Made by a program: the position numbers and the translations under genes
IMG/VR virus record: IMGVR_UViG_3300009768_000006
Location: 1-64,000 of that record
Length of the DNA: 64,000 bases
Reading direction: 5' to 3' (one strand)
Source of the DNA: a virus
Taxonomy: Duplodnaviria; Caudoviricetes
The notes under the pieces: generated by a model
Databases searched by the model: none
Seen by the model: only the letters and a program-made list of their open reading frames with translations
What the model was told of the DNA's origin: nothing
Shown: in pieces, positions 41,651-62,760 of the stretch
Layout: each line of letters starts with the position of its first letter
How positions within the stretch are numbered: the first letter of the stretch is position 1

Positions 41651-42529
41651 ATGGCTGTCGAACTAGTAAAAGGTATAGACGTATCTAAATATCAGACTAA
41701 AACTGATTGGAATATATTAAAACAAGCTGGATATAAGTGGATCATAATTAGAGTAGGCTATCAAGGATATGGATCAGGAGGATTTGCAGAAGATCCTTTA
41801 TTCAAACGTCATATCGATGATGCTCTAGCTGCAGATATACCTGTAGGATTGTATTGGATTTGTCAGTCTATCACAGTTCAGGAAGCTATCAATGCTGCTA
41901 AGTATATATTGGCTATCTTAGATAAGTACAAAATTCCTCTGTCTAAGATACCTCTAGGTGTATGGTGGGATAATGAACCTACTACAGTATATCCTAAAGG
42001 AAGAGCTGATAAACTAGATAAGAATTTGAGGACTGATATAGGATTAGCATTCTTAGATACTATAGCATCAGCAGGATTGGTAGCAGGTATCTATACTAAT
42101 CTACAGTATATCAATCATGAGCTAAATTTTGAGCAATTCGCTAAGTATCCTCTATGGTTAGCTCAATGGAATGCTAAAGGTCCTAGTAGGGAGTGTGCTA
42201 TATGGCAGCATGGATCTATCAAGAACCTTCCTGGCGTAGTTGGAGAATGTGATGTAAATGTGCTATATGATACTAGATTGTTAGGAGAGGTTAAGCCACC
42301 CATCGCTAATGAGAAAATCCCTGAAGGATTCATCCCTTATCCTGCGGTAGTTACTGCGAAGAATGGACTAAATGTTAGAGCAGGTGCTGGAGTTAATTTC
42401 AGCATAAGAGGAGTATTAAAATATAATAGTGAAATTGTTATATTAAAGGAATCAAATGGATGGGGTAGAGTAGCACTAAGAGATAACTATTATGGTTGGA
42501 TAAGTCTTAATTATACTAAACGTAGATAA
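41651..42529 (+). CDS. Endolysin: GH25 muramidase + SH3b cell-wall-binding domain
   Basis: GIDVSKYQ, WDNE (DxE), LWLAQW, WQ...D.N; LNVR.G.G...GWISL.Y. Confidence 0.92.
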   Translation: MAVELVKGIDVSKYQTKTDWNILKQAGYKWIIIRVGYQGYGSGGFAEDPLFKRHIDDALAADIPVGLYWICQSITVQEAINAAKYILAILDKYKIPLSKIPLGVWWDNEPTTVYPKGRADKLDKNLRTDIGLAFLDTIASAGLVAGIYTNLQYINHELNFEQFAKYPLWLAQWNAKGPSRECAIWQHGSIKNLPGVVGECDVNVLYDTRLLGEVKPPIANEKIPEGFIPYPAVVTAKNGLNVRAGAGVNFSIRGVLKYNSEIVILKESNGWGRVALRDNYYGWISLNYTKRR

Positions 42530-46969: not shown

Positions 46970-47033
46970 AAATTTTTAAAAAAATTTTAAAAACAGGCAG
47001 GTCTTTTATATCTTTTGGCGAACTATATATAAT
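46965..47033 (+). promoter_or_regulatory. Probable host sigma-A-type early promoter with A/T-tract UP element
   Basis: TATAAT at 47028-47033; TTTATA at 47005-47010 (17-bp spacer); A/T tracts at 46965-46993. Confidence 0.55.
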
Positions 47034-47077
47034 GAAAGGGAAAAATTCCCTAAAGAATTAACAAAGGAGAATTAACT

Positions 47078-47719
47078 ATGGAAAAGAAGATTAAGCTCGC
47101 CAGCAACGGTAAAGAGGTAGACTGGGAAGAAGTAGAAAAAACAGTAAGCATCATCTGCAGGAAGTTCAACAACATTAACTCTCGCTACATTGAAGATCTC
47201 GCTCAAGAACTTAGAATTCATGCTTTCTACGTTTCCAATAACTATTACGACTTATATCGTAAGGCCATTGATTTCTGGAGGACTCTGACCGTTAGAGTTT
47301 ATCCAGAAATCCCTACATTTGACATGGAAATGAACCGCAGCGCGGAAATGGTGGAAAAGGCCAGTGAAATTAACTACAAGAGTCTCCTCGCTTCCGTCAT
47401 GAAAGAACTTAATCGTCCTGGTGAGAACTTAGCTGATAAGAAAAAGAAGGATCTTGCCATTCAAATCATGATGTTGATTGTTGAGGATATTGACGAAAAT
47501 ATGGAAGTAACTGAGGATATTAACCTCGATGGAAACGAGGCTGACAGAAAGTACATTGGAGCAAAGTTGAATGCTTCTTGGGTTTCTGAGAGGTTGCACG
47601 TCAGCTACAAAGCTGTAATGGCTGCAATGAGAGAACTGGAAGAGACCTTCGTAGGACTGGCTATGATGGGTAAAGTAGTTCTTGATGATCAGTATCGTGA
47701 AAATTACAGATTACGTTAA
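47078..47719 (+). CDS. Putative phage-encoded ECF-like sigma-70 family factor
   Basis: Region-2-like EDLAQELRIHAF...LYRKAIDFWRT; C-terminal HTH-like LNASWVSERLHVSYKAVMAAM; has its own promoter and terminator. Confidence 0.6.
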   Translation: MEKKIKLASNGKEVDWEEVEKTVSIICRKFNNINSRYIEDLAQELRIHAFYVSNNYYDLYRKAIDFWRTLTVRVYPEIPTFDMEMNRSAEMVEKASEINYKSLLASVMKELNRPGENLADKKKKDLAIQIMMLIVEDIDENMEVTEDINLDGNEADRKYIGAKLNASWVSERLHVSYKAVMAAMRELEETFVGLAMMGKVVLDDQYRENYRLR

Positions 47720-47725
47720 ATCATT

Positions 47726-47756
47726 AAACCTCCTGGTTGATAATCAGGAGGTTTTT
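47726..47756 (+). terminator. Rho-independent terminator
   Basis: AAACCTCCTGGTT-GAT-AATCAGGAGGTTT-TT. Confidence 0.9.
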
Positions 47757-47832: not shown

Positions 47833-47855
47833 CCAACTCTCGAGTCTCAAACGTC
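47833..47855 (+). promoter_or_regulatory. Phage promoter motif copy 1
   Basis: CCAACT-N11-AACGTC. Confidence 0.7.
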
Positions 47856-47974
47856 TCTTACGCTGAAGCGTAAGCTTCCGGAGCGTATAAGCGAAGAGTA
47901 GGCGTAGCAGCGTAGGTTAAGCGTCCGCAAAGCGGACATAAGCGCAAGCGCAAGAGACGGCCGTAGGCCGGAAG
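47852..47974. other. GC/CpG-rich multi-hairpin element (candidate replication origin/primer RNA or ncRNA)
   Basis: Outer inverted repeat 47852-47864 / 47947-47959, several mini-hairpins and nine RGCG units; no ORF. Confidence 0.55.
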
Positions 47975-48034
47975 TATATATAAAATTATCTTATATCTAT
48001 CGAGCTATATGTAGATATGAATCTAGATAATTTC

Positions 48035-48057
48035 CTAACTCTATGACATCTAACGTT
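48035..48057 (+). promoter_or_regulatory. Phage promoter motif copy 2
   Basis: CTAACT-N11-AACGTT, upstream of the HD gene. Confidence 0.8.
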
Positions 48058-48082
48058 ACTTATTACGAAGGAGAGATTTAAT

Positions 48083-48784
48083 ATGTATGAAAATCTTAGT
48101 AAGCTTTTATCCTCACCTCTTATGAATCTAGATCATGTCTATAGATATAGTGGTATTAAACAACAAGAGATGGAATCTATAGCTATCCATACTTTTGAAG
48201 TTCAAATGCTAGGTACTATGATTATAGATACTCTCCAGAATTATCATAATGAGAAAGACCTAGATATTAATAAATTTCTTAATCTAGCTTTTCATCATGA
48301 TTTAGAAGAAGCTATTACAGGTGATATACCTAGACCTCTTAAGTATCATGATAGTAATATTCATGAATCTTTAAATTCTATAGCTGAGCTAGTAGCTAAG
48401 GATCTATTCAGAAATAACTTCTTGGATTGTTCTTCTCATTATAAATCTTGGTCAGATGCTAAATCAGGTAAAGAAGGTCTTATTGTAAAATTAGCTGATA
48501 CTCTTACAGTAGTATCTAAGACTATAAAAGAAATAGAGTTACTAGGTAATAAGTATTTTCTTAAAGTAGCTCTAGAAGTAAGATATTACTTAAATGAATT
48601 GGCTAAGAATATAGCTTGTACTGAATTAGACTTCAATTATCATAGCAAAATGTATATGAATGATCTACTTTTAGAAGCTTCTAATCATCTAGGAAATATA
48701 CTTTCTAAATATAGTGAGATAATTGATACGTGTATAACTATTGATAATACTATGATAAATAATAATAAAGGAGAATGTGAATGA
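48083..48784 (+). CDS. HD-domain phosphohydrolase (YfbR-like 5'-deoxynucleotidase)
   Basis: RY...ES.A.H, HHDL.EA.TGDIP.P.K and VKLAD. Confidence 0.88.
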   Translation: MYENLSKLLSSPLMNLDHVYRYSGIKQQEMESIAIHTFEVQMLGTMIIDTLQNYHNEKDLDINKFLNLAFHHDLEEAITGDIPRPLKYHDSNIHESLNSIAELVAKDLFRNNFLDCSSHYKSWSDAKSGKEGLIVKLADTLTVVSKTIKEIELLGNKYFLKVALEVRYYLNELAKNIACTELDFNYHSKMYMNDLLLEASNHLGNILSKYSEIIDTCITIDNTMINNNKGECE

Positions 48785-49539
48785 CCAACATAACTATCTT
48801 TGAGCCTCATGGTGATGATGCTCTTATATCTTGCTATAAATTATTAAGATCGGAGGATAATAATAAGCACATAATCACTTTCTCTGACAGATCTTCTAAT
48901 AAACTAGAGGATAGACCAGAATTACCTAATGTTACTACTCAATTCCTAAATATCCCTGATGTACATTATGACAATCGTATCAAGTATAATACCTATGAAT
49001 TGAAAAGATTGCTAAGCTCTAATGTAGACATCTACAGTTCCTATATAAATGACTCAGATAAATTCTATAGTAAAGATATAGGAATAGACTTCGTAGATAA
49101 TTATAGTAGGCATAAAGCTGCTATAATGGAGAAACTGGATAATACTGATGTAATTTTACTACCTTTCGGATTATTCCATCCTAACCATTTCATGACCAGA
49201 GATGTATTGGAAAGATTAATCTACTCTATGGATCTACAAGATAAACTTCTATACTACATAGACAAACCTTACATAGAGAAGAAATATGTACAATACATGT
49301 TGACTTCAGCTATGAATAATATGCATTATACGTCTAATACAGTATTAGACTATGATAAAGAAGATCCTGAAATCAAACTAGACATATTCAGAGAATGCTA
49401 TCCTACTGAACAAGGATTGCTTAGATACTCTAGAAATACAGTATTGAATAGTCCTGATATGATAGTAAGCACAATCATCAACAATACTAAAGTAAGAGTA
49501 TTCTTAGATACACTTATGATAGAAGGAGTAAGATTGTAA
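48781..49539 (+). CDS. PIG-L/LmbE-family de-N-acetylase
   Basis: FEPHGDDA (PHxDD) and HPNH (HxxH) metal-binding motifs; D.PY. Confidence 0.8.
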   Translation: MTNITIFEPHGDDALISCYKLLRSEDNNKHIITFSDRSSNKLEDRPELPNVTTQFLNIPDVHYDNRIKYNTYELKRLLSSNVDIYSSYINDSDKFYSKDIGIDFVDNYSRHKAAIMEKLDNTDVILLPFGLFHPNHFMTRDVLERLIYSMDLQDKLLYYIDKPYIEKKYVQYMLTSAMNNMHYTSNTVLDYDKEDPEIKLDIFRECYPTEQGLLRYSRNTVLNSPDMIVSTIINNTKVRVFLDTLMIEGVRL

Positions 49540-49540
49540 C

Positions 49541-50683
49541 ATGAAAGTATTATACTTTTGCTACTTGAAAAGTGATCCTAAGCTATGGCCTACTCTAGGA
49601 GATATGAGAATGGCTGTAGAAATGAGTAGAGCTCTAGGAAATAACTATGGCATAATCCTAGCAGGAGATTTTAGATCCTTTACTGCAGATGAAGCCTATG
49701 AGTTGTGTAGTTCATACAATGCTATAGATTATCTGGACCTAGGTGAGTATTGTGACAGTGCTAGGTACATTAGTAATTCCGCTAAATCTCTCAAGAATAT
49801 CATAGATAACTATGATCTTATCCATGTTCATACATCTAAGTTAGGTGTCATGAGTACTATAAGAAGATTATATCCTAATATTCCAATGGTTGTATCTTAT
49901 CATAGTCCTCCTGAGACATCAGAAGTAGGTCATTTCTATAAAGATGATCTACTGAAATTCCTCAATCAGTCTGATTTCAGATTCGTATGTAACAGTAAGT
50001 CTCATAAACAACGTATGATAAATACTCTAAATGTACCAGTGCATACTGTAACTAGCTTAACCTATGCCTATAATGCAATTACTGATATATATAATGTAGA
50101 TAATACTACTAAAATATATAATACTGGTACTATAGGTAGAATAACCTCTGTGAAACGGATGCTTGATTTGGTGAAGTATTTTAAGTATCTGTATGAGAGG
50201 ACAGGTGTGCAGTCTTATTATGTAGGAGATATAGGTCCTTATGAAAAGTCTCCTGATGCTATCAAGTACTATGAAGACTGTAAATATTATCTAGAATCTC
50301 CTGCTATAGACTGGATAAAATTTGCTACTCCTATTGAAATAGGACATATAGTGAAACAAGCTTATACATATACTACATTCAGTCAAGTAGAAACGTTTGG
50401 ATTGACTCTACTAGAAGCTGGATTATCAGGTATACCTAGTGTAGTATTTGATGTAGCAGGACACGGTGAGATTATAGATACAGGATGCAATGGGTATAAA
50501 TTGAGTATCCCAGACAAGAAACGTTATAAAATATCAGATCTTCATGGAGATTTCTATCAACTTGATACTATGGCTAGGGAACTTGATCCAGTTAAAGTAA
50601 GAGAGTATACTAAGAATAAATTCAATATGGATAAACTCTATAAAGACTTCGATAGGATATACAAGGAGGTATTAAATGGATAA
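49541..50683 (+). CDS. GT-B glycosyltransferase, family 4
   Basis: DLIHVH, GRI...KR and SQVETFGLTLLEAGLSGIP...EII..G.NG (EX7E motif). Confidence 0.92.
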   Translation: MKVLYFCYLKSDPKLWPTLGDMRMAVEMSRALGNNYGIILAGDFRSFTADEAYELCSSYNAIDYLDLGEYCDSARYISNSAKSLKNIIDNYDLIHVHTSKLGVMSTIRRLYPNIPMVVSYHSPPETSEVGHFYKDDLLKFLNQSDFRFVCNSKSHKQRMINTLNVPVHTVTSLTYAYNAITDIYNVDNTTKIYNTGTIGRITSVKRMLDLVKYFKYLYERTGVQSYYVGDIGPYEKSPDAIKYYEDCKYYLESPAIDWIKFATPIEIGHIVKQAYTYTTFSQVETFGLTLLEAGLSGIPSVVFDVAGHGEIIDTGCNGYKLSIPDKKRYKISDLHGDFYQLDTMARELDPVKVREYTKNKFNMDKLYKDFDRIYKEVLNG

Positions 50684-51365
50684 TTTAGTGCAACGAGACT
50701 ACAATGAGCATCTCAGGATTAACTCTGAGAAATCTAATGTCATGGATGATAAGTATAAACTCTCTGACGATCCGTGGGGTAATGGTGCTAGAGACTTATA
50801 CACAATACCTATGAGTAGAGTGGTTAGTCTCGTGAAGAATCATATAAGCTATCAAGATAGCAAGAATAATATCACCTGGTTAGATATAGGATGTGGTGGT
50901 GGATTTGTAGGTAGAGCTATTCGAAAGGCTCTCGTAGAAAATAATATGAATATCTGTATGGAAGGCTACGATATTTCTGATACAGCTATAAATAGGCTTT
51001 ATGATAATCCTTCTCATAATCCCTATGATATATTATCAGTAGTTGATATGGAAGAAGTGACTGATGGTAGTTGCTATAAGCATGCGACCATAGTATCATT
51101 AGTAGAAGTGCTCTATTACTTAGGTACTAAGAGACCTTGGAAGAAGTCTGTAGATATGCTATGGGATTCATTACCTATAGGAGCTATAGTGGTAGTAGCA
51201 GATGGTCTTATCCCTTATCAATATAGAGATTATCTGAAAACTAAAGCAGATGCTTCTCTATTACACAGCTATACAGATCCTGATACAGTAGTGAGTGAGG
51301 AAACTACATCAGCTGGTAAAAAGTGGAAACGTAATCTAAAAGTACGTATCTATCAAAAGGGCTAA
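50676..51365 (+). CDS. Class I SAM-dependent methyltransferase, NodS-like
   Basis: DDPW near the N-terminus, WLDIGCGGG, GYDIS..A and EVLYYL. Confidence 0.8.
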   Translation: MDNLVQRDYNEHLRINSEKSNVMDDKYKLSDDPWGNGARDLYTIPMSRVVSLVKNHISYQDSKNNITWLDIGCGGGFVGRAIRKALVENNMNICMEGYDISDTAINRLYDNPSHNPYDILSVVDMEEVTDGSCYKHATIVSLVEVLYYLGTKRPWKKSVDMLWDSLPIGAIVVVADGLIPYQYRDYLKTKADASLLHSYTDPDTVVSEETTSAGKKWKRNLKVRIYQKG

Positions 51366-51384
51366 CTCATAGCATCTGAACGTT
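51362..51384 (+). promoter_or_regulatory. Phage promoter motif copy 3
   Basis: CTAACT-N11-AACGTT. Confidence 0.8.
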
Positions 51385-51390
51385 TATATA

Positions 51391-51535
51391 GTTGTAAGTG
51401 GTCGCTCAAGTAAGTCAAATGATCCGATGAAAGTGGACAATCTGGACGAGTTGAGAAAGGGTGAGTTCCGATGCAGTAGGTAGTATTATAAAATGCTTTA
51501 TAGATAAAATGAGGACGCTCTTTCGCCCTCAACCA
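51391..51535 (+). ncRNA. Candidate structured small RNA of unknown family
   Basis: Bounded by promoter copy 3 and a terminator; no credible ORF; several complementary segments. Confidence 0.5.
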
Positions 51536-51569
51536 ATAAGCCTCCTACAAGTTAGAGGAGGCTTATTTT
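51535..51569 (+). terminator. Rho-independent terminator
   Basis: AATAAGCCTCCT-ACAAGTTAG-AGGAGGCTTATT-TT. Confidence 0.88.
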
Positions 51570-51580
51570 ATAATAATTGC

Positions 51581-51603
51581 CTAACTTAATAGAGTACAAC
51601 GTC
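51581..51603 (+). promoter_or_regulatory. Phage promoter motif copy 4
   Basis: CTAACT-N11-AACGTC. Confidence 0.8.
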
Positions 51604-51635
51604 TTTATAGTTGCTTACAAAGGAGGTTCAAAATT

Positions 51636-51965
51636 ATGAACAAAAAGTGCTTGGCAAGTCCCGTCTTGGTGGATGCAGTACTGATCAAAGACATTGTAGA
51701 TGCAGCTAAAATCGACGAGTATGAGTCTATGCCTGTGTGGGTTCGTAGAGCATTGGACGACGGTAGGCTGGTTATTAACGCTAAAGGAGTCGCTGTTGAA
51801 AGATATCAAGGAGAAATCTTGTATGGTAAGATGAGCGACTACTTGGTAAAAGGCTTGAACAATGACATTATCACTGTGAAAAGTACCATGTTCAGTGTCT
51901 ATTACAGTGTGGTGGATTACAAATCTCTCAACAAACAATTTCGAGAAGAGTCAGGTGTGATCTAA
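51636..51965 (+). CDS. Hypothetical phage protein
   Basis: Strong RBS AAGGAGGT; V.VDA...P.W...DYLVKG pattern common in small phage proteins. Confidence 0.75.
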   Translation: MNKKCLASPVLVDAVLIKDIVDAAKIDEYESMPVWVRRALDDGRLVINAKGVAVERYQGEILYGKMSDYLVKGLNNDIITVKSTMFSVYYSVVDYKSLNKQFREESGVI

Positions 51966-51966
51966 G

Positions 51967-53754
51967 TTGACTAATTATGACGATAAGTCTATCAGAGTCT
52001 TAGGGGACATAGAGCATGTAAGACTTCGCCCAACTATGTATATAAACACGGATAGGCCTAGTTTCCAGATGTTCGATGAAATATTCTCTAACGCTCTTGA
52101 TGAAGCTATAAATGGCTATGCTACGGAATTATCTGTAGAAATAGACTATAAACAATCGAAGATAACTGTTACAGATAACGGTAGAGGCTTGCCACAAGGA
52201 ATCAATGAAGAGACAGGTAAGCCTACTATCGTTATAATCTATAGCAAGCTCAATTCAGGAGGTAAGTATAACCAAGATAGCTATGGTATATCTGGAGGAT
52301 TAAATGGAGTAGGATCTTGCGTAGTGAATGCTCTATCAAAACGTCTAGATGTAGTAACATGGAGAGATAAAATAGCTAAACATGCATCATTCAGTGAAGG
52401 TATCTTGACAGTATATGAGTCTATAGGAAATTACAAGTCCAAATCCAAATCTGGTACTATCGTATCATATTTTATAGATACTGATCACAAAATATTCACT
52501 AGTGATAGTCTTAGTACATATGAGCAAGACATATTAAACAAATTTAGGTTGGTTAAGACTTTAAGACCTGATATTAACTTAGTTTATAATGGGTCTGCTG
52601 TAGATCCTGTAGAATTAGATAAGTTCCTAGTATTCACTAAATCTACACTTTTAGATAATTCTATCATATACAATTCTAAAGACATTAAGTTAGCTATCAA
52701 CTGGAGCATAGATACTAATGTATTGCATCAGCAAACTTACTGTAATTTCATCCACAATATATTAGGCGGAGATAATGAAAAAGGATTAGAAGATGCTCTT
52801 GTAGAGTATTTTAATAATCGTGATATATTATTAGGATTACGTCTAGTAATTTCTACTATGTATCCTAATGTAGAATATGATTCTCAAGCGAAGCTAAAAG
52901 CTGTATCTAAAGACATGAGATTGTATGTAAAGGATAAAGTCCTAGCATATCTTAAGAATTATTTTAAATCAAATCCTGATGATAAAGAGAAGATAATTCA
53001 ACTCATCAATACTAAACGAGTTGATATGAATAAAAGGAACAATAAGAGCAATGTTCGCAGGGATAGGAAAACAGCCTATTTGAATGCTCTAGGAGTAAAT
53101 GGTTTTGCTGATTGTACAACGAAGTGTAGGGATGATGCTGAGCTTTACATATGTGAAGGTGAGTCAGCTGCGGGGTCTTTGAAGCAAGCTAGGGACGTCT
53201 TAACTCAGGCAATCATGCCCTTGAGAGGGAAGTTCATTAATGCTTACACTGCTGATGTCTCCTCATTATTGAAGAATGCGGAAGTAGCTACACTATTATC
53301 CAGTATTAATACAGGAATATATGAAGAAGCTAATATAGTAAAGTCTAGATATGGTAAGATAATAATAACTACAGACGCAGATGAAGATGGTAAGAATATT
53401 GCTTGTCTGCTTATAGCATTCTTCGCTAATACCATACCAGATTTACTGAGGAATGGTCTAATATACTTAGCATTGCCTCCACTATACGGTACTAATATTA
53501 AGAATACATTTATCCCTATATATACTGAATTAGAGAAGGATAGATATTTAGCCCAAGGTGCATATGTACAACGTTATAAAGGTTTGGGTGAAATGTCCGT
53601 CCCTCAGATAAGTCTCTCCTGCATGAATAAGGAGACTAGAAAAATACTGCAATTAGTATCTACTGACGCATGTATGAAAGTGGTGGCTGATATTATGGGT
53701 AGTAATTCAGATTACAGAAGAGATCTTCTTAAGAAAGTAGGTGTACTGCTATGA
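51967..53754 (+). CDS. Type IIA DNA topoisomerase, B subunit (GyrB/ParE-like)
   Basis: HVRLRPTMYI, EIFSNALDE, DNGRGLP, GLNGVG..VVNALS, EGESA, PLRGK, DADEDG and RYKGLGEM. Confidence 0.95.
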   Translation: MTNYDDKSIRVLGDIEHVRLRPTMYINTDRPSFQMFDEIFSNALDEAINGYATELSVEIDYKQSKITVTDNGRGLPQGINEETGKPTIVIIYSKLNSGGKYNQDSYGISGGLNGVGSCVVNALSKRLDVVTWRDKIAKHASFSEGILTVYESIGNYKSKSKSGTIVSYFIDTDHKIFTSDSLSTYEQDILNKFRLVKTLRPDINLVYNGSAVDPVELDKFLVFTKSTLLDNSIIYNSKDIKLAINWSIDTNVLHQQTYCNFIHNILGGDNEKGLEDALVEYFNNRDILLGLRLVISTMYPNVEYDSQAKLKAVSKDMRLYVKDKVLAYLKNYFKSNPDDKEKIIQLINTKRVDMNKRNNKSNVRRDRKTAYLNALGVNGFADCTTKCRDDAELYICEGESAAGSLKQARDVLTQAIMPLRGKFINAYTADVSSLLKNAEVATLLSSINTGIYEEANIVKSRYGKIIITTDADEDGKNIACLLIAFFANTIPDLLRNGLIYLALPPLYGTNIKNTFIPIYTELEKDRYLAQGAYVQRYKGLGEMSVPQISLSCMNKETRKILQLVSTDACMKVVADIMGSNSDYRRDLLKKVGVLL

Positions 53755-53811
53755 TAGTGATGTTATTGCTCCTGTTATTAGCGATAATTACCTGCATAGT
53801 GGAGAGTCATT

Positions 53812-55632
53812 ATGAATAAGTCTAACTTAGTAGGAGATATAGTTACAGATTATACTGCTAGTTACGCTAAATACGTAGCTACATCTAGAGCTATTCCCTC
53901 TCTTATGGATGGCTTGAAGCCTGTAGCTAGAAGATGCATTAATAGTGCAGATGATTTGAAGATATATCATGACAAGAAATTTCTTAAAGTAGCTAAATTA
54001 GAAGGACAAGTAATGGGTGACTATCATCCTCATGGAGGAGCATCCATGGTGCAGTTAGCTCAACCATTCAAGACTAGATATCCATTGTTCGATGGACAAG
54101 GTAATTTTGGCTGTGCTGATCTACCAAATTCAGTAGCAGCTTCTAGATACATAGAGACGAAGCTGTCTAAATTCTGCGAGGATTTCTATCTTAAAGATGC
54201 TGAATTCGCAGATATCGATGATAATTATGACGGTAGATTGAAGGAGAAAGTACTATACTATCCAGATTTACCTGGAGTGATGTTCACAGGAGCATCTGGT
54301 ATAGCTGTAGGATTATCAACTAGTATCCCTATTCATACGATTACTGATGTAGCTAACTCATTGCTACTATATATAAAGAATAATTATAACAATACTGACA
54401 GTAATGAAGAGTACATTTCAGTACTTATGCCTGAGACTTGTGAGAAATCTATAATAGCTACAGACAAAGTAGAAATAGCCTCTATGTATAAAAATGGAGA
54501 AGGATCTATAGTTTATAAAGCAGCTACTCATAGAGAGACTATAGATGGAGTTCCTGCATTGGTAGTAGATGCATTTCCTCCAGATTACTCTAAGAAGCGT
54601 CTTGATAATAGCATTATCCTTGATGCTGTAGAGAATAATATGCTTACATTACTTAATGAATCCTCTGTGAATGTAAGATATGTTTTCATATCTTCTGATA
54701 GTAATCTTCTGGATACTATAGAGAATAAGCTAGACACTAGAATTAGCTATAGGTTCTACATAGAACATAGAGGAGTAATCAAAAAGTATAAATTAGCTGA
54801 GATCTATGACACATTTATAGTAGAAAAACTAGGGTTCATAGATAGAAAGTATAAAGTACTGCTAGCTAAAGTAGAAAATCAATTAAAATATTATGAAGCT
54901 CTATTAAAATTTAGAAGTGGTAATTACGCTAAGAAGGTAATTAGTATGGATGAGCAGGATGCTATATCTTATCTTAGTACTGAACTGAGAATAGATAAAA
55001 CTGTGGCTTCTAGTATTTTAAGCTCTACTATAAGAGAATTGCTATCCTCTAATCTGGATAATATAAACAGAAAATTATCAGATCTCAGAGATAAGAAACT
55101 TAATTATGAATCATTCATCGCTAATCCTCTGAATAAGCTGATCAATGACATAGAAGTACTTAAGAGTAATTATTTAGGAGAAGTCCGTAATGCTGTGCAT
55201 ATCTCAGACATAATAGATAAGGTAGACATAGATACTCAGCTAGGACATATGAGTATCAATAAAACATCTAGATATCTGGTAGCTACGAAAGATAATAATA
55301 TTATCTGTGTCTATGGTAGTGATTTAGTTTCAGATGCGGCAGTATCTACTAAATTAGTAATATCTGCAGAATACAATTATTATTTGCTAGTAGCTCCTAA
55401 GGGATTCATAGTTATGAGACTTGAAGATATTATCTCCAAGGGTAGTAAACTAAATTCTGGTGTATTAGCTAATATATTAGGATTCAATAATCTCAAGAAT
55501 AGCATAGTGTACATGACCAGTGATAGTAGAAGGAAGTACAGCATAGCATTAGATGATACATTCTTACGTACTAGATTGTCTATAATATATCCTGATAGGG
55601 TAGTGACAGGCGCCTCCTTCTCATTTGCCTAA
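53812..55632 (+). CDS. Type IIA DNA topoisomerase, A subunit (GyrA/ParC-like)
   Basis: RAIP..DGLKPV.RR, YHPHG, GQGNFG, AASRY (catalytic Tyr) and GIAVG.ST.IP.H. Confidence 0.95.
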   Translation: MNKSNLVGDIVTDYTASYAKYVATSRAIPSLMDGLKPVARRCINSADDLKIYHDKKFLKVAKLEGQVMGDYHPHGGASMVQLAQPFKTRYPLFDGQGNFGCADLPNSVAASRYIETKLSKFCEDFYLKDAEFADIDDNYDGRLKEKVLYYPDLPGVMFTGASGIAVGLSTSIPIHTITDVANSLLLYIKNNYNNTDSNEEYISVLMPETCEKSIIATDKVEIASMYKNGEGSIVYKAATHRETIDGVPALVVDAFPPDYSKKRLDNSIILDAVENNMLTLLNESSVNVRYVFISSDSNLLDTIENKLDTRISYRFYIEHRGVIKKYKLAEIYDTFIVEKLGFIDRKYKVLLAKVENQLKYYEALLKFRSGNYAKKVISMDEQDAISYLSTELRIDKTVASSILSSTIRELLSSNLDNINRKLSDLRDKKLNYESFIANPLNKLINDIEVLKSNYLGEVRNAVHISDIIDKVDIDTQLGHMSINKTSRYLVATKDNNIICVYGSDLVSDAAVSTKLVISAEYNYYLLVAPKGFIVMRLEDIISKGSKLNSGVLANILGFNNLKNSIVYMTSDSRRKYSIALDDTFLRTRLSIIYPDRVVTGASFSFA

Positions 55633-55651
55633 CTCTTGAGGATTGAACGTT
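55629..55651 (+). promoter_or_regulatory. Phage promoter motif copy 5
   Basis: CTAACT-N11-AACGTT. Confidence 0.8.
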
Positions 55652-55672
55652 GTTTATGTTGAGGTGAGGAAA

Positions 55673-56515
55673 ATGTGCAAAGTATATTTAGCTTCTGGTT
55701 GGTTCGACGAAATTTCTATGAGAGACATCAATGTACTAGAAGATACATTGTTATCACTTCCTGTCGATGCTTACCTGCCTAGGATTCATGGGAAGCTACT
55801 GAATGCAGGAGAGAAGAATGATGCTTCAGTCCGCAAGTCTATATATGAAGAGAACATGAAACATATAGACGAAGCAGATATAGTAGTAGCCAATGTTAAT
55901 TCTGCTGTGAAGTATTATGATCAAGGAACTATGTATGAGCTAGGATACGCATTAGCTGAGAACAAGCACGTAATCTGCGTGAATCTCAATAAGAATCCAC
56001 CTAAGTACGAGTCTATACACGTAAATACTGTATATAGCCTGCATGAGTTAAAGCAGGCTATCAGACGATATATTGAAAGAATTGACTATGATCGTAAAGG
56101 TACGATCTATTACATCAGCGATTCTTCTCTATATGAAGAACCAGATTATTTCGATAATATGTCTATACTTAAGTTGTTAGATTATTATGAGATTGTATGC
56201 CTGGATGAGAATATTAAATATGCTCAGTCAACTATAGCGAAGCTGAAACGGTTCACTAATAAAGATTTACTGTTCGCTGTGATAGATAATAGGCATCCTG
56301 TAGTATCAATGGCTATAGGAGCAGCAAAGTCTGTAGGGTTGCCTGTAGTAACTTATACTAATCATGATTATGGAGTAAATGTCATGCTCCTCGAGTCCAT
56401 TCACTCTCATATAAAAGGATCTGAAGAATTGGTGAAGTTCGTAGAAGCATTGAAATCAGAAGGAGGTATCAATAGTCTTGATAGGAGTGATACGAAGAAT
56501 ATTCGTACTTATTAA
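55673..56515 (+). CDS. Nucleoside 2-deoxyribosyltransferase-fold N-glycosidase, apparently two tandem domains
   Basis: VYLASGWF, I...N..HI..AD.VVA and D.GT.YELGYA.A; second degenerate copy (IG.A...G.PVV...N.ML). ATG 55673 follows GAGGTGAGG, and the track's TTG start lies inside the promoter motif. Confidence 0.82.
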   Translation: MCKVYLASGWFDEISMRDINVLEDTLLSLPVDAYLPRIHGKLLNAGEKNDASVRKSIYEENMKHIDEADIVVANVNSAVKYYDQGTMYELGYALAENKHVICVNLNKNPPKYESIHVNTVYSLHELKQAIRRYIERIDYDRKGTIYYISDSSLYEEPDYFDNMSILKLLDYYEIVCLDENIKYAQSTIAKLKRFTNKDLLFAVIDNRHPVVSMAIGAAKSVGLPVVTYTNHDYGVNVMLLESIHSHIKGSEELVKFVEALKSEGGINSLDRSDTKNIRTY

Positions 56516-56526
56516 GACATAATGTT

Positions 56527-58050
56527 ATGAAGCTATATCAGAAAGCAGAATATCCTTACAGGATATATTTAGGAGGAGAGGATGCAGAATTATATACAGT
56601 AGTATCTAATATAACTAGTAAATATTCTAAAGAAACTCAGGATAGTGATGAGTTATCTACGATAATACTTTTGGATAAAGATAATGATCCTTATACTTAT
56701 ATAGGATTATATAGTATCTTGAAAGCAGAGATACTCACAATGGGTTTCTCAGTAACTATAGATCTAGACTTACCTTCTTCGTTCAGTACTAAGTTAGCTA
56801 ATATTGATAATAATTATCTCGATGGTATTACTTTACGAGACTATCAAATAGAAGCTATAAAGACTTGCTTAGATATCAAACGAGGGCTTGTCCAATCTCC
56901 TACGGGGAGTGGTAAGTCTGAAATGATAGCAGGTGTGTGTAAGTACTTGCTTTTGAATAAACAAGGTAATATACTTATATGTGTGCCTACTACGAATCTT
57001 CTATATCAGACAGTAGATAGATTAGAGCTACGTGGTATAGATAAGGATGATATATCAGCATTTGGCGATGGTAATACAATAGACTTCAATAGAAGAGTAC
57101 TGGTAGCTACAGTAGCTTCTGTATACAATAGTATTGTGAAGGAATCTATTACTCACAATGATTGGTACAAGAATGTGCTATGCACTATAATGGATGAAGC
57201 ACATCATAGTCACTGTAGAACTTGGAGTACTATCATAGATAGTATAGCTCCTGAATATATATTAGGATTTTCTGCAGAACCATTCAATCGTACAGAGGAT
57301 TATTTAGTCACTGATCTGATACTTAGAGGAATAGTAGGATCTATTATATACTCTGTATCTATCGATAAGCTAGTAAAAGCAGGATATTTATCGAAGCCTT
57401 ATGTTATAGCTCTAGATACTACTTATAATGGAAACATTATGAATATCATAGATTGGCAAGTAGTTAACAAGCTAGGAATAATTACAAATAAAAGTAGAAA
57501 TGAATCTATCGTAACTATAGCTAATTATCTAGTAAGCATAAATAAGAATCCTATAATATTAGTAGCACAGATAGCTCATGGTGAAACTATAGCTAAGATG
57601 ATATCTAGCTATGGATATAAAGTAGCATTTATTACAGGAGGTCTTAATACTACTATATATTTGGATGGTAGAGATATAGACAATTACAAAGATAAAGATG
57701 GTATAGTCAAAACTTTGTTCATGGAAAATGCTATAGATGTATTAATAGGTACTTCTACTATGGATGAAGGTGTAGATTTACCATCGCTAAGTTCTGTGAT
57801 ATTAGCAGGAGGTAGTAAGAGTAAACTACGCATAATCCAAAGAATAGGTAGAGGATTAAGACCTAAGAAAGATGATAATACTACAGTGATTATAGACTTC
57901 AGAGATAGATTCAATGTAGTGTTAGCTAAGCATCATAGATTACGTAAAGAAATGTTTGATTCACTTAATATCCCTGTCTATTATGGTAAAACTATAGAGA
58001 ATATAGCAGAAATAATAAAGAATTTCAGCGAGGCCAACTCTCATACCTAG
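56527..58050 (+). CDS. SF2 DEAH helicase (UvsW-like)
   Basis: LRDYQ, PTGSGKS, DEAHH, EGVDLP and QRIGRGLR. Confidence 0.93.
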   Translation: MKLYQKAEYPYRIYLGGEDAELYTVVSNITSKYSKETQDSDELSTIILLDKDNDPYTYIGLYSILKAEILTMGFSVTIDLDLPSSFSTKLANIDNNYLDGITLRDYQIEAIKTCLDIKRGLVQSPTGSGKSEMIAGVCKYLLLNKQGNILICVPTTNLLYQTVDRLELRGIDKDDISAFGDGNTIDFNRRVLVATVASVYNSIVKESITHNDWYKNVLCTIMDEAHHSHCRTWSTIIDSIAPEYILGFSAEPFNRTEDYLVTDLILRGIVGSIIYSVSIDKLVKAGYLSKPYVIALDTTYNGNIMNIIDWQVVNKLGIITNKSRNESIVTIANYLVSINKNPIILVAQIAHGETIAKMISSYGYKVAFITGGLNTTIYLDGRDIDNYKDKDGIVKTLFMENAIDVLIGTSTMDEGVDLPSLSSVILAGGSKSKLRIIQRIGRGLRPKKDDNTTVIIDFRDRFNVVLAKHHRLRKEMFDSLNIPVYYGKTIENIAEIIKNFSEANSHT

Positions 58051-58056
58051 AACGTT
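58034..58056 (+). promoter_or_regulatory. Phage promoter motif copy 6
   Basis: CCAACT-N11-AACGTT. Confidence 0.8.
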
Positions 58057-58078
58057 CTAATAGTTAGAGGTAGAAATT

Positions 58079-59467
58079 ATGACAATGGATGACATCATAC
58101 TAGCAGCATTTCTAAGAGAACCACTATTCTACGCTAACTACAGTTCTATAGTAGATAGCAGTATGTTTGATGGTTCTACTCATCGGATAGCTATTAATCT
58201 TTATGTAGATTATATAAATACCTACATGAGAATGCCTACTGAAGATGAGATGTATGCAGATCTCACAAGATATTGTACTAAGTATGGCATAGATGCATCT
58301 ATGAAGCAAGCAACTATCGAGCAGCTACAACGATGCTATAAGATGAACTATAATGTCAACTATGCTAAAGACAATTTCATAAAGTATGCTACTAAGAATA
58401 AATTAACTGCTGCTGTAATAAAGGCAGCAGAGACTATAAAGGGTAAAGATGATGAATTAAGTGAGAAAGACTATAACTCGATTCTAGAGAATATACAAGA
58501 AGCTATAACTATAAGATCTAGAAGTACTGAAGGAGTAAGTCTGGCTGATGTAGCAGATGATCCTGTCAAATACATACAAGACAATAACAGATATGATGTA
58601 AACAAGATAGTGAAAACTGGGATACCTACTCTTGATGCAGCTCATATAGCGGGAGGGCCTTTGCCTGGAGAACTTTGCGTAGTAGCAGCTCCTCCTGGTA
58701 GAGGTAAATCCACTTTATTAATTAATGTAGGAGCTCATGCTATACTTTCAGGTCATGATGTAATTCATATATTCGTAGGTGATAACACTGAAGCTGACGG
58801 AGTATTGAGATATTGCGCTAGGCTTACAGGTGTGAGTATGCCTCAGATAATGCTCAAATCTTCACAGTATGTAGAAACTTGGAAGTACATGAAGGAAAAC
58901 TTCCACATAGGTAATCTAATATTAGGTGCTTATCCTATAGGTAGTCCTACTATGTCAGATATAAGATCATTCATAACTAAGAATATGATACGAAGATCAA
59001 TCGTACCTAAATTACTTATTATAGACTACATCGATAACTGTAGAAGAGATGATGATGATAATTCTTATGAGTCTTTAGGAGTTCTTTATACTCAAATGAA
59101 GAATATATGTGAAGAAATGCAGCTAGTAGGATGGACTGCATCACAGCCTAAAGTAGATACATGGGATACAGACATAAATGCAGGATTGTCTAGTCTAGCT
59201 GAAAGCTCTAAGAAACAACACGTATTGGATATACTTATTACCATGAATAAACGTAATGATCAAAACTATAGCATATATGTCCCTAAGTTTAGACGTGGTA
59301 GAAGTGACTTCAGTGTAGATCTTATTGTAGATTACGAACGTATGCTCATAAAAGAATCACTAGTTAGCAGAGCAAACGTACCTAGTAGCTCTGGGGTTAA
59401 TCCAACTACTTATAATCAACAAGCTAATAATGCTAATTTGCCTCCTAGTCCATTTACAGGTAAGTAA
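58079..59467 (+). CDS. DnaB-like (SF4) replicative helicase
   Basis: TG...LD, GEL.V..APPGRGKS, IIDYID, WTASQ, AES..K and K.R.G. Confidence 0.9.
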   Translation: MTMDDIILAAFLREPLFYANYSSIVDSSMFDGSTHRIAINLYVDYINTYMRMPTEDEMYADLTRYCTKYGIDASMKQATIEQLQRCYKMNYNVNYAKDNFIKYATKNKLTAAVIKAAETIKGKDDELSEKDYNSILENIQEAITIRSRSTEGVSLADVADDPVKYIQDNNRYDVNKIVKTGIPTLDAAHIAGGPLPGELCVVAAPPGRGKSTLLINVGAHAILSGHDVIHIFVGDNTEADGVLRYCARLTGVSMPQIMLKSSQYVETWKYMKENFHIGNLILGAYPIGSPTMSDIRSFITKNMIRRSIVPKLLIIDYIDNCRRDDDDNSYESLGVLYTQMKNICEEMQLVGWTASQPKVDTWDTDINAGLSSLAESSKKQHVLDILITMNKRNDQNYSIYVPKFRRGRSDFSVDLIVDYERMLIKESLVSRANVPSSSGVNPTTYNQQANNANLPPSPFTGK

Positions 59468-59469
59468 TT

Positions 59470-60519
59470 ATGAGAGATGATTACAAGATATTAGTAGAGA
59501 GTAAACTCACTCCTGTAGGTATTAATGGTGATGATGTAATCTACAGATGTCCTGTATGTGAAGCTGTAAAAGGATCTGGTCATCTTCAGGTAAATTATAA
59601 AATAAATAAATATAATTGCTTTAAGTGTGATGTAGGAGGTTCTGATATAAAGAATCTACTGCACTTACTTAAAGTAGACGTGAGCATGGATTATGATGCT
59701 CTTTACAGTAGTTATGAGAAGAAATTAGACAATATCATATCATCTAAGTCAGCTAAGAAGCAGGTAACTACAATAAAAGATTATAGTAGAGATCTTAAGG
59801 TACTAACGTCCTATTATGATCAGCATACAAAACCATTAACTCCTGTAGCTAGGAGTTATTTAATATCTAGAGGATTAACTGATGATATAATAATGAAGCT
59901 ACGAATATCTGAAGGAGTGAATAGATATAACGAGATTATTAAGATAAATAATAAAGAATATCTAGGTAGAGATTATAGTGGTAGAGTGATGGTACCTTCT
60001 ATATACGAAGATAATACTATATCATTCTTCGTAGGTAGGGATTACACAAATACTAAAAATAATAAGTATCTTAATCCTCCTAAGGATCTAGCATTCTCCT
60101 CTGAAGATGTATACAATTTGAACTTAGTAGAATCTAATTCAGTTATTATATGTGAAGGTGTATTTACAGCTATAACTGTGATAGCAGGTTCAGGTAAAAT
60201 AAATGCTGTAGCTACCTATGGTAAATCTATAAGCAGTAAATCTAACTCAAATGAATCGGTAACTAGTCAAGGTGAGAAATTACTAGCTAGAAAGTTCCAT
60301 ACATATTATATAGCTTATGATGCAGATGCAATGAAGAATTCTATAGAGTCTGCTAAATATCTTAATGATAGAGGAGCTAATGTTAAAGTAGTACTAATTG
60401 ATCCTCTAGTTTATGGAGCGAAAGCTGATATAAATGATATAGGTTATCAAGAATTCGTAAAACTTCTAAATAATTCGTTAACTTATGATAAGTACATTAG
60501 GCTAACTTTACTGAATTGA
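59470..60519 (+). CDS. DNA primase (DnaG-like)
   Basis: Zn finger CPVC...H...CFKC, YL..RG, GR...KYLN and TOPRIM motifs CEG.F.A and YDAD. Confidence 0.9.
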   Translation: MRDDYKILVESKLTPVGINGDDVIYRCPVCEAVKGSGHLQVNYKINKYNCFKCDVGGSDIKNLLHLLKVDVSMDYDALYSSYEKKLDNIISSKSAKKQVTTIKDYSRDLKVLTSYYDQHTKPLTPVARSYLISRGLTDDIIMKLRISEGVNRYNEIIKINNKEYLGRDYSGRVMVPSIYEDNTISFFVGRDYTNTKNNKYLNPPKDLAFSSEDVYNLNLVESNSVIICEGVFTAITVIAGSGKINAVATYGKSISSKSNSNESVTSQGEKLLARKFHTYYIAYDADAMKNSIESAKYLNDRGANVKVVLIDPLVYGAKADINDIGYQEFVKLLNNSLTYDKYIRLTLLN

Positions 60520-60524
60520 ACGTT
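60502..60524 (+). promoter_or_regulatory. Phage promoter motif copy 7
   Basis: CTAACT-N11-AACGTT. Confidence 0.8.
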
Positions 60525-60560
60525 TCTATATACGTAAGAATTGTAATGGAGGTATTACTA

Positions 60561-61046
60561 ATGATAATGAGTTTCTCGGTGGACCATACAAAATTAGTAC
60601 CAGGACTCTATCTTTCAGAGAAGATAGGTAACATCTCTATCTGGGATATCAGGATGGTGGCTCCTTCATCTAAGAAGAAGCTCACAGGTCCTGTAGTTCA
60701 CACTTTGGAGCACCTCCTAGCATTCTATATTAGATTGCATTTAGGAGAGAAGAAAGTCATAGGGTTGTATCCTATGGGATGCAAAACAGGATTCTATCTG
60801 GTTACTAAAAGAGCTAGTAAACATCAAGTATTGGAAGCGATGAAAGATGTCTTCCATATATTCTATACGAATGCTCAAGGGAGTTGGGAGGATAGAAATA
60901 TTATAGCTATCCCTGGAGCTACAGAGAAAAGTTGTGGGAATCCTAACTACCACAATCTTCCTGAAGCTCTGAAAGAAGCAGCTAAGTACTATGATAAGCT
61001 GTATATGCTGTACACTGTAGATATGGACTATGATAACTTAGTATAA
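60561..61046 (+). CDS. luxS: S-ribosylhomocysteine lyase LuxS
   Basis: SF.VDHTK, HTLEHL, PMGCKTGFY and IPGA....CGN...H.L; ATG 60561 follows GGAGGT. Confidence 0.92.
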   Translation: MIMSFSVDHTKLVPGLYLSEKIGNISIWDIRMVAPSSKKKLTGPVVHTLEHLLAFYIRLHLGEKKVIGLYPMGCKTGFYLVTKRASKHQVLEAMKDVFHIFYTNAQGSWEDRNIIAIPGATEKSCGNPNYHNLPEALKEAAKYYDKLYMLYTVDMDYDNLV

Positions 61047-61061
61047 AGGAGAATATTACTA

Positions 61062-62111
61062 ATGAAGAGTGATAGGTTGGTACAAGGTAATTTTACAGGT
61101 CCTATAAGACCTACAGCTAAAATCATAAGTCATACTAGTTATCCTATCGGTACTTTGTATACTGTATGGACAGGTACTAGATATGGTAGATGTCTGGATC
61201 CTAAGGTAGTTCAGGAGATTTATGATGGTAATTGGACAGAGGATCGCAGGGACGAAGTTGAATTCATCTGTAAATGCTATCCTGAGTATACTGGTAGTTG
61301 GACTAGTAGGAAGACGCAGGCTTCCTCTGTGATTCTAGCGATTGCTCAGAAAGTCATAGAGTCAAATGTTCCTGCAGGAGAAGCGGTTCATCTTAATATC
61401 CAGATAGACAATGCTAGTGTTGCATGGCGTGAGCAGCTAGTCAGAGGTAGGATATCTCAACAATTCTGGACTATGTCTACTAGGATCATGGACATGACGT
61501 CTATGGATGTGAACATGAATGATAGCATAAATCTTATCGGTGGTGAAGAAGCTGTAAAAATTTATGAGGATACTGTTCAGACTATCAGAGATGCTTATAC
61601 TAAACTGATTGACCTAGGTATCCCTGTAGAGGATATCAGACTGCAACCTCAGAATCATGTTCATAGAGTGTACTGGATGGTTCCTCTACGTACGTTGGTA
61701 ACTATTCTGAATAAACGTAGTGACTGGATCGCACAAGGATCTCTTTGGACTCCTATTGTATCCAGTATCATCTTAGCTCTAAGACAGATAGGGCTTTACA
61801 ATGTTATAGCTCCGTTCATAGGGAAGCCTATGGTTGAGTTCTCAAAGGATCCTGAAGGGAACTATTTTGTTTCTAAATATATAATGGAAGCAGATAATGA
61901 AGATAGGTATAGTGGGAGAGATAAACTTCCATGTGATCCTCTATGGCTAGCATACAGACATAAAACGATGCCAGCTCATACTAACATAGAGCATTATGAT
62001 TATCTGAAGTCTGTCTACATGAATATTTGGTCTGATGAATATTTGGAAATACTAGGATGGGATAGGGAGAATCCTGAGCAGTTAGGTTACTACGATAGAC
62101 CTCAGGCATAA
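61062..62111 (+). CDS. Divergent ThyX-like (flavin-dependent thymidylate synthase fold) protein
   Basis: EQLVRGR...MSTR (cf. RHRx7SxR), Y..L...G.P.ED.R and R.L......R....AQ. Confidence 0.7.
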   Translation: MKSDRLVQGNFTGPIRPTAKIISHTSYPIGTLYTVWTGTRYGRCLDPKVVQEIYDGNWTEDRRDEVEFICKCYPEYTGSWTSRKTQASSVILAIAQKVIESNVPAGEAVHLNIQIDNASVAWREQLVRGRISQQFWTMSTRIMDMTSMDVNMNDSINLIGGEEAVKIYEDTVQTIRDAYTKLIDLGIPVEDIRLQPQNHVHRVYWMVPLRTLVTILNKRSDWIAQGSLWTPIVSSIILALRQIGLYNVIAPFIGKPMVEFSKDPEGNYFVSKYIMEADNEDRYSGRDKLPCDPLWLAYRHKTMPAHTNIEHYDYLKSVYMNIWSDEYLEILGWDRENPEQLGYYDRPQA

Positions 62112-62123
62112 CAAAAGATAGGA

Positions 62124-62747
62124 GTGTTCTTACAAATGAGCAAGTTTATAGGGATATCAGGTCCTACATGTACTTACAAAAGTACTATACATGCCTTATT
62201 GAAGAAAGTACTGCCTACGGATCCTAAAATAGTATACCTGGATGATATCCATGATACTGTATGGAATAACTTGGTAAAGAGTGGTGTATTCTTTAACTAT
62301 CAAGAACTGACTAGCGATAGAGATTACTTACTCATGTACATATCCAAGCTGATAGATTACTATGCTAGTCAGATAGAGAAATACAAATACACTGATAACA
62401 TTGTAATCATGGATGGGTGTATCGTAGACATATTAGTCTACAGTATGTTGAATACCTGGTATCATTATCCAGTGAAAGAGTATACAGAGAAACTGATGGA
62501 AAAACTACTGAAGTATATGGATTACATAGACAATGTATTCATCACTATTCCTGATAAGAATAACGAAGAGAAACTTCAGTACAGCAGAAGAGCTCAACAA
62601 ACTGCATTTAAGAAGAACAGGCCTCTAGAATGTTCATACTACAACATAGCTGGAGGTTTGCGTATATGTACGAAGCTTACATCAGACATAGTAAGTAATG
62701 CTAATATTATAAAAGAAAAAGTGCTAGAGTATGTAGCCTTACTGTGA
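62124..62747 (+). CDS. P-loop nucleoside/nucleotide kinase-like protein (AAA_28/dNK-like); start may be ATG 62136
   Basis: Degenerate Walker A ISGPTCTYKST; D....D..VY. Confidence 0.6.
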   Translation: MFLQMSKFIGISGPTCTYKSTIHALLKKVLPTDPKIVYLDDIHDTVWNNLVKSGVFFNYQELTSDRDYLLMYISKLIDYYASQIEKYKYTDNIVIMDGCIVDILVYSMLNTWYHYPVKEYTEKLMEKLLKYMDYIDNVFITIPDKNNEEKLQYSRRAQQTAFKKNRPLECSYYNIAGGLRICTKLTSDIVSNANIIKEKVLEYVALL

Positions 62748-62760
62748 GCATCATAACGTT
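62738..62760 (+). promoter_or_regulatory. Phage promoter motif copy 8
   Basis: CTTACT-N11-AACGTT. Confidence 0.72.

Follow-up and report, generated by a model that had tools for sequence, protein, structure and literature searches.

A strand-restricted bipartite motif as a candidate pre-late promoter class, with a putative sigma-like factor, in an uncultured phage

In the uncultured phage represented by IMG/VR record IMGVR_UViG_3300009768_000006 (Duplodnaviria; Caudoviricetes; 102,551 bp), we identified 21 copies of a bipartite motif, CYWACT-N11-AACGTY. They lie between 47.8 and 99.4 kb, where virtually every non-structural operon and tRNA cluster, and also two small non-coding units, is headed by one. 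Every gene of the phage lies on the + strand. The window, by which we mean the 64,000-nucleotide stretch that makes up the first 64 kb of the record, holds the structural module in its first 47 kb and eight of the motif copies after it. The motif occurs far above chance and almost certainly represents a promoter class. We also favor, with a confidence somewhat above even, the more specific reading that these promoters form a pre-late (delayed-early or middle) class read by host RNA polymerase, with a 213-residue phage protein, P0010, serving as a sigma-like factor.

A pattern search of the window returned exactly the eight copies from which the motif was first described, all on the + strand, against a chance expectation of 0.03; none of 100 dinucleotide shuffles reached eight, and none contained more than one. 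Over the full 102,551 bp the same search gave 20 forward and no reverse matches, and a reversed control pattern had no match anywhere in the record. The motif also emerged from an unbiased count of dyads, where CTAAC-N12-AACGT ranked first genome-wide (17 observed, 0.085 expected); these counts turned up no second bipartite motif, nor any word in the structural module that made a convincing late promoter. A position weight matrix (PWM) built from the 20 strict sites recovered all of them along with one single-mismatch copy at 73,531 (CACGTC), so that the regulon, originally put at eight members, comprises 21 copies spread over 52 kb. These 21 sites score 26.8 or more, while the next best position in the genome scores 14.8, the best on the reverse strand -0.3, and the best within the 1-47 kb structural module 4.7. 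Together with zero pattern matches there, this last value substantiates by computation the absence from the structural module that had been noticed by eye. All 21 sites lie on the + strand between 47,833 and 99,400 and all fall at gene boundaries, which extends to the whole genome the placement seen in the window.

A scan of IMG/VR with GGCTAACT-N11-AACGTT gave single chance hits among the matches listed, and the sole locus with several hits among them (L066) was rejected as a coding repeat in a phage of 51% GC. The motif was not found in CB473P1 or the MT8354xx/MT8355xx phages, which carry the nearest relatives of the canonical sigma factor described below, and neither motif nor sigma was found in HSE3, LIS04, SP-15, and GXN1, which have the nearest capsid proteins.

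The units headed by the motif in the window are given in Table 1. In the six that begin with a coding sequence, 21-36 nt separate the motif end from the ATG, within the range first estimated for them. Two of these starts, ATG 55673 and ATG 60561, had been proposed as corrections to longer predicted open reading frames (ORFs), and both hold: each follows its own Shine-Dalgarno sequence, whereas the extended ORFs, initiated at TTG, would have their first codons within the motif itself. The Pfam match for LuxS begins at residue 17 of the long form. Outside the window, the single-mismatch copy at 73,531 precedes a gp32-like single-strand binding gene and, like the copy at 51,581, directly follows a terminator hairpin. 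Apart from the units in Table 1, those headed by the 21 copies encode ligase; the single-strand binding protein and a RecA-like protein; FEN with Mre11-like and Rad50-like proteins; DUF932 and DUF2786 proteins; MetK; several blocks of small ORFs; and three tRNA clusters.

Table 1. Coordinates of the motif copies in the window and of the features of the candidate factor gene
Feature	Position	Strand	Content and context
SigmaA-like promoter, TTTATA-N17-TATAAT	47005..47033	+	A/T tract 5'; 45 nt before the P0010 start codon
P0010, 213 aa, candidate sigma-like specificity factor	47078..47719	+	Family without Pfam or PHROG match
Terminator-like hairpin, CCTCCTG/CAGGAGG stem, 9-nt loop, T5	47726..47756	+	Read from the sequence
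Motif copy 1	47833..47855	+	CCAACT-N11-AACGTC, PWM score 35.7; followed by a GC-rich non-coding stretch, no coding sequence
Motif copy 2	48035..48057	+	Heads operon 48083-51365: HD nucleotidase, ORF of no assigned function, GT4 glycosyltransferase, methyltransferase
Motif copy 3	51362..51384	+	Followed by a non-coding stretch of about 180 nt, with a terminator hairpin at its end (about 51536-51572)
Motif copy 4	51581..51603	+	Directly after a terminator; heads ORF 51636 and two topoisomerase II subunits
Motif copy 5	55629..55651	+	Heads nucleoside deoxyribosyltransferase-like gene (ATG 55673) and helicase
Motif copy 6	58034..58056	+	Heads DnaB-like helicase and primase
Motif copy 7	60502..60524	+	Heads LuxS (ATG 60561), ThyX-like gene, kinase
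Motif copy 8	62738..62760	+	Heads ORF 62784, UDG-PolA DNA polymerase, canonical sigma 66428-66937 (beyond the window)

Of the two non-coding stretches that follow copies 1 and 3, the first (47856-47990) is a CpG-rich hairpin cluster and the second (51385-51572) has a strong terminator at its end. Their fold z-scores are modest, at -1.8 and -1.6, and an Rfam search over 46.9-64 kb, both stretches included, gave no match.

The original description of the motif as bipartite with a fixed spacer stands, but it was incomplete, as further blocks are conserved on either side. The full consensus reads T-n-G-S-CTAACT-y-N10-AACGTY, followed by an AT-rich block and a pyrimidine-purine step. Upstream of CTAACT, a T at -4, a G at -2, and a G or C at -1 are conserved; within the motif, position 7 is a pyrimidine, position 15 is T, and AACGTY occupies positions 18-23. 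The TA-rich stretch said usually to follow the motif is present throughout, positions 26-28 being A or T at all 21 sites. Every site has a pyrimidine at position 32, and 20 have a purine at position 33 (G in 18); positions 35 and 36 are likewise purines in 20 of 21. The AAC and CGT cores typical of extracytoplasmic function (ECF) promoters are invariant in the 20 strict sites and kept in the 21st, with exactly 14 nt between them in all 21, as first reported. In characterized ECF promoters, among them those of Bacillus sigmaW, sigmaX, and sigmaM, this gap is 16-17 nt. Resemblance to housekeeping promoters is slight: CTAACT agrees with TTGACA at three of six positions, the hexamer 17 bp after it (positions 24-29) has the A that would correspond to -11 in six of 20 sites and the T that would correspond to -7 in eight of 20, and none of the 21 sites appeared in a scan for sigmaA promoters.

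Bacterial promoters usually have a pyrimidine-purine step at -1/+1, and here the step at positions 32/33 coincides with the limits set by the downstream genes. Motif positions 32-34 are where the Shine-Dalgarno sequence starts in four sites, and for the copy at 90,002 the first base of the tRNA-Ser gene falls exactly on position 33. Because these features bound it, we place the start at G33, the likely position on sequence grounds. AACGTY would then span roughly -15 to -10, and G-S-CTAACT roughly -34 to -27. Two other assignments were rejected. The AT hexamer at 24-29 is too degenerate for a canonical -10 element and conflicts with the Shine-Dalgarno and tRNA constraints, and taking TGTAAG as a single -10 element of the phiEco32 type would put the start 3' of the Shine-Dalgarno sequences.

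A search of IMG/VR with the P0010-family alignment yielded a single relative, G002 (112,222 bp), and the same search of metagenome contigs and of GTDB genomes yielded no related locus. The relative is syntenic with the source phage, its proteins being 35-73% identical (capsid protein 68%), and contains no copy of CYWACT-N11-AACGTY. Its top-ranking dyad is instead AGGGA-N14-ACGTATTATAATAATGTAAGG, present in 16 copies, all on the + strand. When the two motifs are anchored on ACGT, the upstream box lies at the same offset (-18) in both phages, and the downstream TG / TGTAAG step is shifted by one base. Six or seven of the copies in the relative stand at junctions orthologous to those of the source phage, namely before the ligase, FEN, DUF932, and topoisomerase B subunit genes, after RuvC, and both before and after DUF2786, so that the two motifs appear to be functional equivalents. 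The comparison therefore indicates a regulon-wide exchange of the -35-like upstream half, with the ACGT half kept. The factor follows a similar pattern, with 68% identity in its N-terminal domain and 33% over the remainder, and the conservation of the P0010 domains thus appears to parallel that of the motif halves. For the original proposal of a phage-specific middle promoter class, this bears out the lineage specificity, given a syntenic relative with a different upstream half; the middle timing is one that we infer. Several promoter copies of the relative (e.g. at 16901, 26005, 51943, and 92635) also share an identical downstream leader of about 40 nt with a small hairpin, which indicates that promoter-leader cassettes have been duplicated around its genome.

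The layout of the P0010 gene also sets it apart from its surroundings. It forms a unit of its own, a single gene between its own promoter and its own terminator (Table 1); the terminator scan, with a loop limit of eight, did not pick up its 9-nt-loop hairpin. SigmaA-like hexamer pairs are not enriched in 46.5-64 kb (81 against 82.7 in shuffles), and among pairs of 10/12 quality only one in the genome is intergenic and on the coding strand, the pair before P0010. As this is the only intergenic sigmaA-like promoter on the coding strand, P0010 is the one gene that unmodified host polymerase should read on its own. Across the whole genome, such 10/12 pairs number 17 on the coding strand and 39 on the opposite strand, a deficit that may reflect selection against sense host promoters or an effect of strand composition. 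Two repeats lie close to the start of the gene. An inverted repeat, AGGGAAAAATTCCCT, directly follows the TATAAT (47037-47051) and could be an operator that shuts off the factor gene. A direct repeat, AATTAAC-N4-7-AATTAAC, overlaps the ribosome-binding site (RBS) of the P0010 (47056-47076), DUF932 (88042-88059), and DUF2786 (98642-98659) genes; AATTAAC has 14 copies in the genome, 10 of them intergenic, and the direct repeat may be a shared translational or transcriptional operator.

We found 108 homologues of P0010 (32-50% identity), several of which lie on contigs of 90-122 kb. Invariant residues of this family are concentrated in positions 16-84, and a near-invariant segment of the alignment, DDLAQELRIHAYYVSDNYYDLYRKAIDFWR, resembles by eye the DLxQE core of sigma region 2.2. 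No match was found for P0010 in Pfam, PHROG, or PDB sequences, nor by tblastn against 50,697 phage records at E 1e-3, a search that also gave no sign of homology to the SPO1 middle sigma gp28. Significant region 2 and region 4 matches, by which membership of the sigma70 family would be recognized in sequence, are thus lacking; the sole signal at sequence level is a correctly placed Sigma70_r2 match of 10 bits (E 0.07) in the homologue from the relative. A single-sequence AlphaFold2 model was unusable (pLDDT, the predicted local distance difference test, 41), and a model from a 45-sequence alignment (pLDDT 84) is all-helical with two domains. Foldseek placed ECF sigmas at the top of its PDB matches (SigH, sigmaE, SigK, AlgU, and SigW) and phage ECF-type sigmas at the top of its viral (BFVD) matches, in both cases with E of at least 0.07. 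VIA-align matched residues 1-84 to sigma domain 2 of RpoE, SigW, SigR, and SigC, and residues 85-205 to sigma domain 4 of SigH, SigB, SigD, and SigL (Z 5.7-6.6). Language-model neighbors of P0010 include viral Sigma70_r2 and r4 clusters, at 0.92-0.94. These predictions are consistent with one another and sub-threshold; they weakly suggest a sigma-like protein, and P0010 is not a proven member of the sigma70 family. Its candidacy as the factor, put forward originally from the sequence, has nonetheless gained from the sole sigmaA-like promoter, the weak but consistent fold matches, and the parallel between domains and motif halves.

Several results weigh against P0010 as a sigma-like reader of the motif. 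Pfam searches of 45 family members found nothing, 10 more distant members have no sigma domain, an hhalign comparison of the family with a sigma alignment gave a probability of 0.9%, and a PDB profile search returned nothing relevant. The fold matches fall below significance, with E of at least 0.07 and with Z below 8, a range common among helical proteins. The covariation of motif and factor comes from two genomes only, and the 14-nt gap is shorter than in characterized ECF promoters. In the relative, moreover, the factor gene is preceded by a motif copy, its only visible promoter, with no separate sigmaA promoter, so that a cascade there would need self-priming or basal use of TATAAT by sigmaA. 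The motifs of the relative hold a perfect TATAAT and would also suit host sigmaA.

In a different reading, sigma appropriation operates as at T4 middle promoters: host sigmaA would read the hexamer at 24-29 as its -10 element, and P0010 would be an activator whose binding to the upstream and ACGT blocks substitutes for recognition of a -35 element. T4 middle promoters offer a precedent (PMC2988021). Exactly 17 bp separate CTAACT from positions 24-29, the TATAAT of the relative stands at the equivalent place, and positions 35 and 36, which are purines in all but one of the 21 sites, would provide for a start there. T4 MotA, at 211 aa, is also close to P0010 in size. In the source phage, however, the hexamer is degenerate, a start at 35-36 would lie within tRNA-Ser and truncate the Shine-Dalgarno sequences of four genes, and the P0010 model is all-helical with sigma-like matches. 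We consider sigma appropriation unlikely, though it is a serious alternative and fares better than the others.

A second candidate reader is encoded by the phage itself. The original scheme had no canonical sigma factor, and a sigma70-family gene at 66428-66937, beyond the window, must now be fitted in. Its 169-residue product has significant matches to Sigma70_r2 (52.6 bits, cut-off 24; 4e-14) and r4 (27.5 bits, cut-off 24.1; 2e-6) and to PHROG 351 (2e-32), which makes it a member of the sigma70 family, and SPO1-like phages encode distant relatives of it (about 30% identity). No other protein of the genome has significant sigma domains, and ECF sigmas commonly autoregulate, so one might suppose that this protein reads the motif and that P0010 does something else. 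Yet its gene is the third in the operon headed by copy 8 and has no other promoter, so that its product cannot start the class. The gene also sits in a segment (66.4-70.7 kb) that is missing from the same place in the relative, where the DNA polymerase and ligase genes are adjacent. In the source phage the sigma gene stands between them, along with small ORFs amounting to about 3.8 kb (66428-70710) and including a GC-rich stretch at 67146-67484, in what looks like a lineage-specific insertion. The canonical sigma of the relative is a different, 369-residue ECF-type protein, whose gene immediately follows a motif copy and lies just 5' of the packaging genes; the two sigmas occupy different loci and are non-orthologous, with 27% identity over 51 aa, in contrast to the ACGT half of the motif, which both phages keep. 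Since both are encoded behind motif copies and neither is conserved in the other phage, they are more readily explained as products of the motif class, probably sigmas for late genes, than as readers of its conserved half. The protein at 66428-66937 is probably a late factor, and its being the reader is improbable.

Slightly less probable again is the use of a hijacked host alternative sigma of ECF type, with upstream halves that differ by host. The AAC...CGT core does resemble ECF promoters, but nearly all non-structural expression would then depend on a stress sigma, and the isolated, sigmaA-driven P0010 gene and the parallel between domains and motif halves would be left unexplained. That the motif is no promoter but a repressor operator, a signal for RNA processing or anti-termination, or one for DNA modification or replication is very improbable, even though AACGTT is palindromic and the genome encodes DNA-modification enzymes, as the halves cannot pair, the spacer is fixed in length and free in sequence, orientation is strict, copies lie just 5' of Shine-Dalgarno sequences or tRNAs and just 3' of terminators, and these operons have no other promoter candidate.

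A beta-prime-type RNA polymerase domain (PF00623) was not detected in either phage, with controls positive in 14 of 14 genomes; a T7-like polymerase (PF00940) was likewise not found, in a search that had no positive control, and three large ORFs of the structural module have no family match. We hypothesize that host RNA polymerase with sigmaA would first transcribe the isolated P0010 gene from TTTATA-N17-TATAAT, and that the two-domain, sigma-like product would then bind host core polymerase. Its conserved N-terminal domain would read the ACGT-centered, -10-like block (AACGTY) and its variable C-terminal helix-turn-helix domain the -35-like block (G-S-CTAACT), with transcription starting at the Y32/R33 step, 10 nt after AACGTY. 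One motif-driven operon would in turn yield the canonical sigma, which would probably switch on the motif-free structural module. More broadly, P0010 might found a family of phage sigma factors that are orphans in sequence, with more than 100 members on uncultured-phage contigs of 90-122 kb. Such factors would redirect host core polymerase to a promoter of three blocks, in which the -35 box varies, the ACGT box is conserved, and an AT/TG region marks the start, and they would have had their -35 specificity swapped regulon-wide between sister phages. This wider proposal is tentative, and we give it a little less than even weight.

The kind of system outlined here is known, while the consensus, the short geometry, and the sequence-orphan factor family are new. 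In Bacillus phage SPO1, an early gene transcribed with sigmaA gives rise to a small divergent sigma, gp28, which directs host core polymerase to bipartite, phage-specific middle promoters, and gp33/gp34, made from middle transcripts, follow for late genes (PMC13401047). The overall scheme proposed for the source phage resembles this succession of host sigmaA, phage sigma, and later phage sigma, but P0010 has no sequence similarity to any phage record, and the virion module has its affinities with capsids of the T4/SP-15 type and not with SPO1. The SPO1 middle consensus is AGGAGA / TTT-TTT, from which the present motif differs. The phages phiEco32 and 7-11 (gp36/gp47) have promoters at the same genome positions whose sequences have diverged along with the phage sigma, the 7-11 consensus being the bipartite GTAAtg-N16-aCTA (PMC8948821). 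The source phage and its relative show the same pattern, with positions kept while sequence diverges. In contrast, the sigmas of phiEco32 and 7-11 are recognizable homologues that serve middle/late or late genes in enterobacterial podoviruses, while the class described here covers non-structural genes and its candidate factor is a sequence orphan.

Resemblance to ECF (group 4) systems lies in the AAC of the -35 element, the CGT of the -10 element, a minimal two-domain candidate reader, and the predicted fold of P0010, whose closest matches are SigH, sigmaE, SigW, and SigK. Departures from that group are the 14-nt gap, the conserved G-S 5' of the -35 element, the AT block and TG step 3' of the -10 element, and the lack of an evident anti-sigma factor. 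As with T4 MotA/AsiA, a phage-specific upstream box would replace -35 recognition at pre-replicative genes through a two-domain factor of about 210 aa, whereas the degenerate -10 hexamer and the all-helical P0010 model are unlike that system.

Promoter classes of uncultured phages can rarely be read from sequence alone. Here, across half of a 102-kb genome, a single motif reveals how the operons are organized and corrects gene starts, and it singles out a protein family that lacks annotation as the likely specificity factor. Should P0010 prove to be a sigma factor, the range of sigma70-like proteins would extend beyond what sequence models detect, and the source phage and its relative would be a natural pair for mapping each domain to its promoter half. 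The motif and its factor could also serve as an orthogonal expression switch in Gram-positive hosts.

Other features of the genome bear on the identity of the phage and its host. A megablast of 46.8-64 kb against phages gave no match, and searches for related loci found none with the helicase, canonical sigma, or capsid protein among viral contigs, or with the DNA polymerase among metagenome contigs. The virion module is related to T4/SP-15-type capsids: the major capsid protein (11422-12891) is of the T4 gp23 type, with nearest relatives at 36-40% in Bacillus phages vB_BceM-HSE3 and SP-15 and Listeria phage LIS04. A 95-bp "direct terminal repeat" is contained in the BspA-type leucine-rich repeats of a gene crossing the record ends (window 1-492 and genome 101370-102551), and it may be a repeat-induced assembly overlap, not true phage termini. 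The structural module encodes a tail-associated lysin with SpoIID and NlpC/P60 domains (21852-23660), a CotH-like protein (38578-40578), and a GH25 endolysin with an SH3 domain (41651-42529). This set, together with strong GGAGG RBSs and an anaerobic NrdD, suggests an anaerobic Gram-positive host, possibly a spore-former, and a Gram-positive gut bacterium is the probable host.

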